Below are positions 11,747 through 14,712 of a stretch of DNA of 64,000 nucleotides, piece after piece. The notes under the pieces are model-generated. The model did no database searches and was not told where the DNA came from. It worked only from the letters and a program-made list of their open reading frames with translations. The stretch is from Bacillota bacterium (GTDB lineage: Bacteria > Bacillota > JAAYKD01), in the NCBI GenBank assembly GCA_036744005.1, contig DAINOJ010000003.1:29403-93402 (forward strand). Reading direction: 5' to 3'. A program made the translations under genes and the position numbers. Every line of letters begins with the position of its first letter. The first letter of the stretch is position 1.

Positions 11747-11785
11747 AAAGCTCCTCTCGCTGTAGCGAGAGGAGCTTTTGTTATT
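11747..11785. terminator. Bidirectional intrinsic terminator between convergent genes
   Basis: AAAGCTCCTCTCGC-tgta-GCGAGAGGAGCTTT: perfect 14-bp stem followed by TGTTATT. Confidence 0.75.
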
Positions 11786-12371
11786 AGAACACGGAAAGGA
11801 TGCCGCCTTTTTCCTGGTGCCCGGTATCCCAAAGCAGTTTTAAGTCGGCAGTTCTGCGTTCCCCCCAAGTGGAGTATATAATCTCATCTCCCTGATAACC
11901 GGTAATCGTAAACCAGTGCCACTCAATTTCGTCGAAAAGTGGATTCGTGTGCCGTAGTAAAAGGTATTGTACACTGATTCCGGCGTCAATATAACGGTGG
12001 ATCATATTTCGTGCTTCCTCATACGAAGCATCTCCTTGCAGAGATTCGAATTGTACCTCAACTCCGTGGGCGGCGGCGTACTTGGCAAACCCACGCTCAA
12101 AAAGCTTTGTTTCAGCCATGCCACGGAATCCGGGTGCAACAAAGCGATACATACGATCGGCAAATTTGGTGAATTCCGGTTGGCTGAGGTCAAGACCGGC
12201 ATAGGGATATAAATCCGCACGTTTGGGATCATGAACGGCCAAGAGCGCAGCGGCATGACAACCACAAACCGTGGAACAACCGCCACGATTCATAATGGGA
12301 TGGCGGAATTGATATTGGTTTCCACCATATGCCCCATTCACTTTGAGAAAATCCAGTTCTCTTACTTCCAT
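11784..12371 (-). CDS. Hypothetical protein, 195 aa (possible papain-fold / C39-like cysteine hydrolase)
   Basis: Clean ORF with RBS. A Cys-containing motif GGCSTVCGCHAAALL and downstream His residues suggest a Cys/His hydrolase; low confidence. Confidence 0.35.
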   Translation of the reverse strand: MEVRELDFLKVNGAYGGNQYQFRHPIMNRGGCSTVCGCHAAALLAVHDPKRADLYPYAGLDLSQPEFTKFADRMYRFVAPGFRGMAETKLFERGFAKYAAAHGVEVQFESLQGDASYEEARNMIHRYIDAGISVQYLLLRHTNPLFDEIEWHWFTITGYQGDEIIYSTWGERRTADLKLLWDTGHQEKGGILSVF

Positions 12372-12481
12372 GGTATCACCTTACCCTTTTGTTGCCTTTA
12401 CTGACTGTAGGGTCAATGCATATCATTATAATCGAAAGCATACAAACTAGCAAGTGATGGAATCACAAAACATGAACTCAC

Positions 12482-12510
12482 TTGACAATTGTTGCAGGAA
12501 TGAGTAAGAT
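12482..12510 (+). promoter_or_regulatory. Sigma-70-like promoter (TTGACA-17-TAAGAT) driving the leader of the CNNM/CorC transporter gene
   Basis: -35 TTGACA at 12482-12487, 17-nt spacer, -10 TAAGAT at 12505-12510. Confidence 0.5.
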
Positions 12511-12517
12511 AAAAGAA

Positions 12518-12655
12518 AACAGTGTGAGTGAGGAATGAAGCATGGCTCCAGATGGAACCGACGAGGACGATAACCCTACTTATCTGTGTACAGAAAAGCG
12601 ACATAAGCAACCCTTTAGGCCATAAGCGGAAAGGGTATGCTTGTTTTTTATTTTG
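12518..12655 (+). ncRNA. Candidate M-box (Mg2+-sensing, ykoK-type) riboswitch with terminator expression platform
   Basis: ~140-nt structured leader containing GAGTGAGG...GGCTCC and ACAGAAAAGCGACATAAG, which resemble the conserved M-box segments GGTGAGGCTCC and ACAGAAATCATCGACATAAGG. It ends in a CCCTTT / AAAGGG hairpin plus T-run directly before the RBS of a predicted Mg2+-transporter-family gene. Confidence 0.5.
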
Positions 12656-12669
12656 AAAGGAGATGTAAT

Positions 12670-13989
12670 TTGGAAAGCTCTATAGGAATGTTACTGGCGA
12701 TTCAGGCTGTTTTAGTGTTCCTGAATGCAATCTTTGCCAGCGCAGAAATCGCAATTATCTCGATCAATGATAATAAGTTGGCAAAAATGGCCGAACAAGG
12801 AGATAAAAGAGCCATTCGTCTATTGGTATTGACCAAACAACCGGCAAAGTTCCTAGCTACCATTCAGGTAGCGATTACCTTATCGGGATTTTTGGGAAGT
12901 GCTTTTGCTGCAGAGAATTTCTCGGATTCTTTAGTCGGTTGGCTAATGCAAATAGGTTTAAAGGGGAATCCTCAAACTTTGAATACCGCTGCAGTAATCT
13001 TGATTACTATCCTCTTGTCCTATGTCACTTTAGTTTTTGGAGAACTGGTTCCCAAACGATATGCCATGCGCAAAGCAGAACCTTTGGCTCTTGGTATGTC
13101 AGGGTTGATTCATGTGATTGCCAAAGTGTTTTCCCCTATTGTCGGTTTACTCACCGGATCAACCAACCTGATTCTACGAGTCATCGGTATCGACCCCAAT
13201 CACGTGGATGAAGAAGTGAGTGAAGAAGAAATTCGTATGATGGTCGATGTGGGAAGTGCCAAAGGAACCATTGAAAAACATGAGAAAGAGTTCATCCAAA
13301 ACGTTTTCGAGTTTGATGACATCACAGCAGCGGAAATAGCCACACATCGAATGAAAGTAGCCATTTTGTGGTCGGACGAGACACTGGAACAGTGGGAAGA
13401 AACCATTCATAAAAACTCCTATACTGTATATCCTGTCTGCCATGAGACGGCAGATGAAGTCTTAGGGGTAATCAATATCAAAGAGTACTTCAGGCACAAG
13501 AACCCTACCAAAGAATTTGTGATGGAAAAGGTCTTGCAACCTGCTTACTTTGTACCTGGTTCGGTCAAAGCAGATAACTTGTTCCGCAACATGAAGAGCC
13601 AGCGCACTCGCTTCGCGATTGTTCTCGATGAGTATGGTGGGATGTGTGGTATTGTCACCATGAATGATCTCATCGAACAATTGGTGGGAGACTTTAGTGA
13701 TGGGCATCATACTAAGGGGGAGACCCAAGTCGTCCGAAAACTGAATGAGGACACTTGGCAAGTTTCAGGTCAGCAAGAACTTGAGGGTTTGGCGGAGCAG
13801 TTAAACATGTGGTTACCAACGGAGGAGTATGAAACCTTTGGTGGTATGGTCTTTGGAGTCTTGGGCTCTATCCCCGACGATGGAGTGCAGTTTGAACTGA
13901 ATGCGTATGGTCTTCACATTGAAGTCAAAAACATATTGGATCATCGCATTGAAATCGCAACCATACAAAAAATATCCGGCTCTGCATAA
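12670..13989 (+). CDS. CNNM/CorC-HlyC family transporter (DUF21 TM domain, CBS pair, CorC_HlyC C-terminal domain)
   Basis: N-terminal 4-TM DUF21 region, CBS-pair region and a C-terminal transporter-associated domain. Start at TTG 12670 (RBS AAAGGAG, 7 nt spacing); ATG 12688 is an alternative. Confidence 0.75.
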   Translation: MESSIGMLLAIQAVLVFLNAIFASAEIAIISINDNKLAKMAEQGDKRAIRLLVLTKQPAKFLATIQVAITLSGFLGSAFAAENFSDSLVGWLMQIGLKGNPQTLNTAAVILITILLSYVTLVFGELVPKRYAMRKAEPLALGMSGLIHVIAKVFSPIVGLLTGSTNLILRVIGIDPNHVDEEVSEEEIRMMVDVGSAKGTIEKHEKEFIQNVFEFDDITAAEIATHRMKVAILWSDETLEQWEETIHKNSYTVYPVCHETADEVLGVINIKEYFRHKNPTKEFVMEKVLQPAYFVPGSVKADNLFRNMKSQRTRFAIVLDEYGGMCGIVTMNDLIEQLVGDFSDGHHTKGETQVVRKLNEDTWQVSGQQELEGLAEQLNMWLPTEEYETFGGMVFGVLGSIPDDGVQFELNAYGLHIEVKNILDHRIEIATIQKISGSA

Positions 13990-14011: not shown

Positions 14012-14659
14012 TTACTTCTTGCGGCGATTGTAATCGTCTTCGATACTCTTTTTCCAATCGGTCTTCATCGATTTGTTTTTGCGCAAATGTGTGACCGCAT
14101 CGTTCAAAGCGGAGTAATTCAATTCGGTGCCTTGGGCATCTGCAACGAAATTGGTCGCGTAATCGGCTTGAATTCCCATAGTTTCTGCTGTGCCGATGGC
14201 ATCGATATTCGCACCGAGAAAGAGAAATTCCCAGCCGAACTGAGCCTTTTGTCGCTGAATCAGTTGGCGAATTCCGTACACGTCGTATTCGCGACTGGCA
14301 TTTTCCATGCCATCGGTCGTGATTACGAAGAGCACTTTCTCTGCTCGCTCTGCATCGACGGTATGTTTTTGAACCAAAGCGATTTTGTGAATGGTTTTAC
14401 CAATGGCATCGAACAATGCGGTAGAGCCACGTACGAAATAATCCTTTTCCGTTAAGGTTGTAATGCCACGAAGGGGAATTCGATCGTGAAGCAACTCGTA
14501 GCGGTCATCAAACAAAACCGTTGTGACCACACATTCCCCCTCCGATTCTTTTTGGCGATTCAAAAGCGAGTTGAAACCCCCAATCGTATCCTTTTCCAAC
14601 CCGCTCATGGAACCACTACGATCTAAAATAAAAACCAACTCTGTCCATCCTTTTTCCAT
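14012..14659 (-). CDS. von Willebrand factor type A (vWA) domain protein
   Basis: MIDAS motif LVFILDRSGSMSG, plus VITTDGMEN. ATG at 14659 with RBS AAGGAGG. Confidence 0.75.
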   Translation of the reverse strand: MEKGWTELVFILDRSGSMSGLEKDTIGGFNSLLNRQKESEGECVVTTVLFDDRYELLHDRIPLRGITTLTEKDYFVRGSTALFDAIGKTIHKIALVQKHTVDAERAEKVLFVITTDGMENASREYDVYGIRQLIQRQKAQFGWEFLFLGANIDAIGTAETMGIQADYATNFVADAQGTELNYSALNDAVTHLRKNKSMKTDWKKSIEDDYNRRKK

Positions 14660-14712
14660 GATAATCCTCCTTGTTTTTGATGTCACTGAAAGGATACCAT
14701 GGAGAAAGAGTT

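Follow-up and report, generated by a model that had tools for sequence, protein, structure and literature searches.

Nascent peptides with an N-terminus rich in Asp/Glu and Pro, interspersed with small residues, cause translation abortion—intrinsic ribosome destabilization (IRD), which is enhanced at low Mg2+—and it is through IRD that the leader peptide MgtL senses Mg2+. The N-terminus of Escherichia coli YbeX/CorC (MSDDNSHSSDT) is also a validated IRD element, for which its authors proposed more CorC synthesis at high Mg2+, and in Salmonella both corC and mgpA are induced by high Mg2+ through a regulatory mechanism that the paper calls unclear. Here we describe the leader of a gene for a CNNM/CorC-type transporter, a putative Mg2+/cation exporter, in a 64,000-nucleotide stretch of a Bacillota genome (contig DAINOJ010000003.1; hereafter "the window," in whose positions all coordinates are given unless a locus is named). 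The original prediction had read this leader as an M-box (Mg2+) riboswitch. We propose, with moderate confidence, that it is instead a ribosome-mediated (leader-peptide) transcription attenuator, in which translation of a short upstream open reading frame (uORF) would melt the terminator and switch the gene on at high Mg2+ or cations.

The elements on which this proposal turns are the following:

12530–12533, + strand: Shine-Dalgarno (SD) sequence of the uORF, GAGG, 8 nt before the ATG, at a spacing (GAGG-N8-ATG) fixed in 5/5 subfamily variants
12542–12625, + strand: uORF (leader peptide), 27 codons plus TAA, MAPDGTDEDDNPTYLCTEKRHKQPFRP and then stop, conserved in orthologous loci L081, L109, L001, L108, and L087
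12545–12577, + strand: proposed sensor segment (from composition), codons 2–12, APDGTDEDDNP, Asp/Glu/Pro-rich with small residues
12603–12616, + strand: terminator 5′ arm, inside uORF codons 21–25 (from fold and covariation)
12617–12629, + strand: terminator loop, which holds the uORF stop TAA at 12623–12625 (from sequence and fold)
12630–12644, + strand: terminator 3′ arm (from fold and covariation)
12645–12654, + strand: U-tract TTTTTATTTT, also read as TTTTTTATTTT directly 3′ of the hairpin (from sequence)

Judged by its sequence, the uORF peptide resembles the validated IRD elements. Residues 2–11 (APDGTDEDDN) comprise six D/E/P and four small residues, and the peptide falls within the published DE/P-rich definition more strongly than MgtL or YbeX (three non-overlapping DE/P clusters, against two and one, respectively). 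The MgtL leader of mgtA in E. coli and Salmonella likewise places a short uORF with a D/E/P-rich N-terminus (MEPDPT...) ahead of a Mg2+ transporter gene; the peptide starts can be set side by side (M-A-P-D-G-T in the window, M-E-P-D-P-T in MgtL), with no homology beyond composition. In MgtL, as in our model of the window, Mg2+-dependent continuity of translation decides transcription termination downstream. Yet MgtL controls an importer through alternative RNA folds and a Rho-dependent terminator, with drop-off leading to expression at low Mg2+, whereas the window combines a putative exporter with an intrinsic terminator inside the uORF, has no conserved alternative fold, and is predicted to be on at high Mg2+. 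The YbeX/CorC N-terminus shares with the clostridial uORFs MSDSDSSDDHDS and MSEDNSDEDNDS a run of Asp and small residues at positions 2–11, and its element, which aborts translation, belongs like the window's target to a CBS-CorC_HlyC protein. There, however, the element is the N-terminal part of the protein itself and affects nothing but translation, whereas the window has a separate uORF and a terminator.

Two further classes of leader share the architecture rather than the peptide. The E. coli pyrBI leader ORF reads through an intrinsic terminator, whose hairpin is blocked by a close-following ribosome with no need of an antiterminator; its signal is UTP-dependent polymerase pausing rather than the nascent peptide, and its leader peptide is not acidic. 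The geometry of the window is alike, whereas the proposed signal, an acidic nascent peptide, differs. The bmrB-bmrCD, vmlR, and erm/cat leaders of Firmicutes also exert ribosome-mediated control through a short uORF, some of them with intrinsic terminators, but they depend on antibiotic-stalled ribosomes and antiterminator folds, encode non-acidic peptides, and target resistance genes.

Conservation of the uORF is visible among the closest relatives of the window, in orthologous loci taken from genome and metagenome collections. L001 and L084–L087 (73% protein identity) have a common leader core, GAGG-N8-ATGGCTCC-N4-GGAACCGA, which reads as an SD, then ATG, then an open frame. The leader peptide is MAPMGTEESEHPLFAVRIMRLNKHLC followed by a stop in L001, MAPKGTEEGEQPLF... 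in L087, where the frame is shifted thereafter, and MAPEGTEEDDNPTYLCTKKRHRQPFRL followed by a stop in L109, a new variant from the metagenome scan. Between L109 and the window, codons 2–12 differ by three substitutions, all third-position, with the acidic residue kept each time, and across the subfamily variants codons 7, 8, and 10 are always GAN with the third base free. The codon-degenerate metagenome scan for MAPxGT[DE][DE] yielded four true matches (one of them the new variant) among ~28 chance matches, and the window subfamily is therefore rare. Within the window itself, the only SD-preceded short ORF on the + strand with at least four acidic residues at positions 2–12 is that at 12542. 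The only other acidic, SD-preceded short ORF of the window, at 1913–2021 on the − strand (MDPSKYEGYDPEH...), was rejected as a leader: it starts at an internal in-frame Met of a 168-aa ORF (1911–2417, − strand).

The uORF-plus-terminator design is conserved and specific to the CNNM gene family, a conclusion that is well supported across 77 orthologous loci from many clostridial lineages (78 with the window). An ATG-initiated uORF with at least three Asp/Glu in residues 2–12 is present in 51/78 loci, vs. 3/78 on the reverse strand and ~7/78 in dinucleotide shuffles. We then curated a leader set (n = 51) by adding L087, L109, and non-ATG starts and removing five mis-calls; related peptides across the family include MDDSDSNNGDKPPL..., MSDSDSSDDHDS..., MDESDSDDSDAD..., and M[ED]DSP[LY]PER... 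(GTG/TTG starts), and some are 40–66 aa long. An SD of at least 4 nt precedes 42/51 of the uORF starts, vs. 16% of other ATGs. Every one of the 51 leaders has a terminator (−14 to −34 kcal/mol), and in every one the uORF frame remains unbroken as far as the terminator 5′ arm, vs. 25/51 and 6/51 for the other frames (p = 3e-19). The stop codon falls in the 5′ arm (7), loop (15), or 3′ arm (8), past the hairpin (21), or ≤3 nt before it. A strict signature (SD, ATG, at least four D/E, 10–70 codons, terminator) matched 28 times on both strands of 1.23 Mb, and 25 of these matches stand at the CNNM leader position.

The composition of the family peptides and the pattern of their substitutions carry signatures of translation. 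In residues 2–12 of the 51 leaders, D makes up 30%, S 17%, G 9%, E and N 8% each, and P 6%, and bulky residues account for ~4%; the small-residue fraction is 0.80, vs. 0.36 in control N-termini, and the published DE/P-rich definition covers 38/51 family peptides vs. 73/603 (12%) controls. The wobble position is free (GAT/GAC 60/106, AAT/AAC 20/24, AGT/AGC 47/34). In the largest subfamily, the ratio of nonsynonymous to synonymous polymorphism (pN/pS) is 0.46 when read in the uORF frame, compared with 1.27 and 0.83 out of frame, and a conserved Pro-Pro, which the window uORF does not contain, is kept through synonymous change.

Two observations on the wider set deserve record. Ser is encoded by AGY in 81/94 cases within codons 2–12 of the 51 leaders, where nearly all codons are of the form RRY (purine-purine-pyrimidine). 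A second uORF subclass, with GTG/TTG starts and alternating acidic residues and Pro (M[ED]DSP[LY]PER..., MEDPPLPDK), occurs ~150–200 nt upstream of the gene in L050, L064, L072, L080, and L054, i.e., in Syntrophomonas, Ruminiclostridium, and other Bacillota metagenome-assembled genomes, and is nearer in pattern to MgtL (MEPDPTPLP).

At the RNA level the terminator stands out. The hairpin at 12603–12644 (−18.7 kcal/mol) is far more stable than expected from its composition (z = −3.68; 0/200 shuffles fold as well), although its 13-nt loop alone kept it from being picked up by a simple terminator scan, and RNAalifold recovered it as the sole conserved structure in both subfamilies, with compensatory changes. 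By contrast with the terminator, for which the original prediction was right, the "structured leader" that it placed upstream did not materialize: the 86 nt of 12517–12602 fold at −14.7 kcal/mol, vs. a shuffle mean of −14.5 kcal/mol (z = −0.07), by which a stable aptamer fold in this segment is ruled out. RNAalifold on the two subfamilies gave no conserved antiterminator, and in the window the 5′ arm together with upstream sequence is no more stably folded than its shuffles (z = +0.28 and +0.43). As there is neither a conserved alternative helix nor a window fold above chance level, no credible antiterminator exists, and the leader therefore fits the pyrBI-type sub-design, not the trp type.

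The M-box (ykoK, RF00380) has in common with the window a 5′ leader, an intrinsic terminator, and Mg2+ transport genes of Firmicutes as targets, but it is a three-helix aptamer that binds Mg2+ directly and turns importers off at high Mg2+, whereas what the window conserves is an ORF. Its aptamer spans ~160 nt, about twice the ~86 nt available here. An Rfam 15 cmscan of the whole window at gathering thresholds returned no match of any family; over 12372–12700 with permissive filters (E ≤ 10) the only match was PreQ1 noise on the opposite strand (11.9 bits), with no RF00380 match at any threshold; and across 20 orthologous loci there was no riboswitch match in Rfam. The two strings taken for M-box-like conserved segments have other identities: the first is the SD and start of the short ORF (GAGTGAGG...ATGGCTCC), and the second is uORF codons 17–22 running into the terminator 5′ arm (ACAGAAAAGCGACATAAG). 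A conserved acidic short ORF, with its start codon and SD, thus accounts for the conserved leader nucleotides. With no model match—a refutation by the original prediction's own criterion—too little sequence, and no fold beyond chance, the M-box is ruled out; the sensing element is most likely the nascent peptide together with the ribosome rather than an RNA aptamer, and the predicted polarity (on at high Mg2+) is opposite to that of the M-box. Of the Mg2+-responsive attenuator first proposed for this CNNM/CorC gene, the transcription attenuator survives and the M-box identity does not, while a Mg2+-related signal is still plausible.

Three further structural features of the leader were observed. 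A mini-hairpin at 12544–12559 (GGCUCC-N4-GGAACC, with a C.A mismatch), which begins at the last base of the uORF AUG, is invariant in 5/5 subfamily variants, three synonymous sites included, and may influence initiation or pausing. Another possible hairpin, a weak one at 12567–12589, has two covarying pairs, and the TGTAC on its 3′ side is kept despite a different reading frame in L001 vs. L087; it might be a polymerase pause element. In the minimum free energy fold of the complete leader (−35.4 kcal/mol, z = −2.1), the uORF SD and AUG (12526–12545) pair with the terminator 3′ arm and U-tract (12637–12655).

The architecture varies naturally among the loci. L082 and L083 (75% identical) keep the promoter, and the ~150-nt uORF-terminator cassette is absent from them, such that an SD leads straight to the transporter; by comparison with the other loci they would be natural "constitutive" deletion or insertion variants. 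In these two loci (L082:1345–1520 and L083:1325–1520, equivalent to window 12440–12690), the SD used elsewhere for the uORF serves the transporter directly. In L077 (2914–2961), the CNNM protein carries the acidic segment MDDGDSNTGDEPPTNY as an in-frame N-terminal fusion, without a terminator—the arrangement found in E. coli YbeX/CorC—and the segment has ~73% DNA identity (counted by hand) to the uORF starts of Roseburia loci. Shorter fused versions, starting MDEGDS and MDDGVS, occur at L027:2989 and L028:2986, respectively. From these three architectures (uORF plus terminator, fusion, and none) we argue that the functional module is the acidic peptide rather than an RNA fold.

The leader is set between a promoter and the transporter gene as follows:

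12482–12487, + strand: −35 box of the leader promoter, TTGACA (from promoter scan)
12505–12510, + strand: −10 box, TAAGAT, after a 17-nt spacer, 10/12 matches for both boxes together (from promoter scan)
12656–12662, + strand: SD of the transporter gene, AAAGGAG, 7 nt before the TTG (from sequence)
12670–13989, + strand: transporter gene, encoding a CNNM(DUF21)-CBS-CorC_HlyC membrane protein with a TTG start, putative Mg2+/cation exporter (from Pfam and PDB matches)

These features confirm what had been claimed of the promoter, the ribosome-binding site, and the gene family. The sigma-70-type promoter-like site as a whole (TTGACA-17-TAAGAT) occupies 12482–12510 of a 298-nt intergenic region (12372–12669) between a divergent 195-aa ORF and the 439-aa gene. 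Its −35 region (CTTGACA) is unchanged across 8/8 aligned relatives, leader-less loci included, and the −10 box in relatives is TAAGAT or TACCAT; transcription is predicted to start near 12517, giving a leader of ~140 nt. The U-tract and the transporter start are just 15 nt apart, too close for a second promoter to fit between the terminator and the gene. The TTG start at 12670 is backed by a database protein (P0001) of 439 aa and 98% identity. The encoded protein has all three Pfam domains, each above cut-off (CNNM/DUF21 161.6, CBS pair 37.2, and CorC_HlyC 50.8 bits), and its closest solved structures are archaeal CorB (7m1t/7m1u, 1e-43) and CorC; a GE[LI]xPK motif aligns with CorB 7m1t and is invariant among orthologues. 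The NCBIfam matches (PaeA as best similarity, GldE, and CorC) lie far under their family cut-offs, and because these equivalog matches fall short, the substrate is assigned from family membership only; both Mg2+/cation as substrate and export as direction are thus putative. The CNNM gene is flanked by 195-aa and 224-aa proteins without a Pfam match (11784–12371 and 14012–14686, both − strand). Synteny of both is kept in all close relatives, where they adjoin a Macro-domain protein, an AraC/GyrI-like regulator, and a ZIP transporter.

In the mechanism that we propose, transcription would begin near 12517, and a ribosome would load at GAGG-N8-AUG and translate the 27-codon uORF, whose APDGTDEDDNP stretch would make it pause or drop off when poorly stabilized (IRD, stronger at low Mg2+). 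The uORF would carry the ribosome through the terminator 5′ arm to a stop in the loop. A ribosome that has passed the acidic stretch and trails RNA polymerase would occupy the 5′ arm, no hairpin would form, and polymerase would read through to the CNNM/CorC-type gene (on); if translation were aborted or lagged in the acidic stretch, the hairpin would form and transcription would stop at the U-tract (off). The outcome would be a putative Mg2+/cation exporter made when cytoplasmic Mg2+, or total ribosome-stabilizing cation, is high. We infer three things from the analysis as a whole: termination is under the control of translation, the signal sensed is Mg2+ or ribosome stability, and the gene is on at high Mg2+. 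This predicted logic fits the induction of Salmonella corC and mgpA by high Mg2+.

Several points weigh against this proposal. A pyrBI-like mechanism requires that the ribosome catch up with the polymerase, and in Bacillus subtilis transcription and translation are reported to be uncoupled. With the matches to PaeA (polyamine) and CorC all under cut-off, the CNNM subfamily has no assigned substrate. The D/E enrichment is partly circular because the uORFs were picked by acidity, although this choice has no bearing on the presence of SDs, the bias toward small residues, the openness of the frame, or the specificity of position. In the window subfamily, pN/pS is 0.95 (five variants from three lineages only), and the case for translation there therefore rests on SD/ATG conservation, GAN wobble, and analogy to the larger family. 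Invariant synonymous sites in this subfamily (GCT, GGA, and ACC) could reflect the RNA hairpin at 12544–12559, and the AGY/RRY bias could represent either the mutational neighborhood of GAY, AAY, and GGY or a nucleotide-level constraint.

Among the alternatives, the one that survives best—rather unlikely in our estimation—keeps the uORF-terminator attenuator as described and has the acidic/Pro peptide report a signal other than Mg2+, such as polyamines or total cation load, an EttA-like ABC-F factor (energy state), EF-P, or pH/ionic strength. The best NCBIfam similarity of the transporter is, after all, to the polyamine exporter PaeA, albeit below cut-off; translation of N-terminal acidic stretches in E. 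coli depends on EttA according to the literature; and other ribosome-destabilizing stresses may, as Chadani et al. point out, be reported by IRD as well. EF-P is brought in by the conserved Pro-Pro of the largest subfamily and by the many members with Pro-Pro, but the window uORF is not among them. Mg2+ is favored over these candidates by the characterized CNNM/CorB/CorC/MpfA relatives, which are tied to Mg2+ efflux or tolerance, and by the validated YbeX and MgtL elements, both of which respond to Mg2+.

An opposite polarity, in which stalling or drop-off on the acidic stretch would lead to read-through via an undetected alternative RNA fold and so to expression at low Mg2+, appears improbable. 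Such a model would follow the logic of MgtL-mgtA and of the bmrB, vmlR, and erm-type leaders, and candidate pairings can be found in the weak 12567–12589 hairpin with its two covarying pairs and, by eye, in a TATGCC in part of the Pro-Pro subfamily that could pair with GGCATA at the terminator start. It would nonetheless need the antiterminator that RNAalifold failed to find in either subfamily and that the folds of the window 5′ arm with upstream sequence, at or below chance, do not supply. Moreover, a ribosome stalled at codons 2–12 ends ~10 nt before the terminator and would leave the hairpin free to form, the model does not require the passage of the uORF into or through the terminator seen in 51/51 leaders, and induction of an exporter at low Mg2+ is physiologically implausible.

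We consider it very improbable that the leader is an RNA-only element (M-box, another or a new riboswitch, or a protein-binding leader) with an incidental ORF. The invariance of ATGGCTCC-N4-GGAACCGA at synonymous sites in five variants, where a small hairpin is possible, the purine-rich RRY codons, and the TGTAC conserved across differing frames in L001 and L087 would each suit such an element; set against them are the lack of any Rfam match in the window or the 20 orthologous leaders and of any fold beyond chance, the family-wide freedom of wobble positions with a pN/pS of 0.46 in the ORF frame only, the conservation of SD and ATG at the 5′ end, and the fusion of the acidic peptide to the protein in L077. 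There is just as little to commend the short ORF as an independent small-protein gene with its own terminator, the transporter being expressed by constitutive leakage or from another promoter: its good SD and the 40–66 aa of some members would fit, but the 15 nt between U-tract and transporter start offer no promoter space, the C-terminal half of each peptide follows from the terminator sequence, in a frame that differs from one relative to another, the peptides belong to no Pfam or NCBIfam family, and the element is found at the CNNM leader position only. Classical amino-acid attenuation (Asp/Ser codons, tRNA charging) is rejected for lack of an antiterminator and because the product of the regulated gene is a transporter.

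The attenuator that we favor appears to have escaped description. Searches of Pfam and NCBIfam at E ≤ 10 gave no family for the leader peptides, the full-text literature searched holds no description of a CNNM acidic leader (an absence that is no proof of novelty), and none of the uORF-type motifs in the Breaker-lab survey is linked to CNNM or hemolysin genes. The CNNM acidic leader is thus a widespread and apparently undescribed clostridial control element, one that would bring together two known principles, attenuation by a leader peptide and sensing by IRD, in a new arrangement and with a target of a new class. Tentatively, it may represent a widespread, undescribed clostridial class of cation-sensing leader peptides, in which an IRD-sensor uORF running into a terminator would turn on a CNNM/CorB-type exporter only when ribosomes are stabilized. 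The first intuition, that an unusual target is under the control of a Mg2+-related attenuator, may still prove right, albeit for a different reason.

These findings bear on how bacteria deal with excess Mg2+, as its sensing and the induction of exporters are largely unexplained and this leader offers a concrete mechanism, open to testing, for a large group of gut and environmental Clostridia, including the cultured carriers Anaerosporobacter mobilis DSM 15930, Agathobaculum ammoniilyticum, and Anaerosacchariphilus polymeriproducens. They also caution that such leaders should not be annotated as riboswitches. If the proposed mechanism is true, it would represent transcription attenuation coupled to translation in a phylum reputed to couple the two weakly, and would extend IRD/leader-peptide sensing beyond the mgtL of Enterobacteria, with an evolutionary link to the acidic N-terminus of E. 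coli CorC. That the acidic module can be a uORF, a fusion (L077, YbeX), or absent altogether would suggest a device, both ancient and portable, that uses the ribosome to sense Mg2+ and is associated with CorC-domain proteins from Proteobacteria to Firmicutes.

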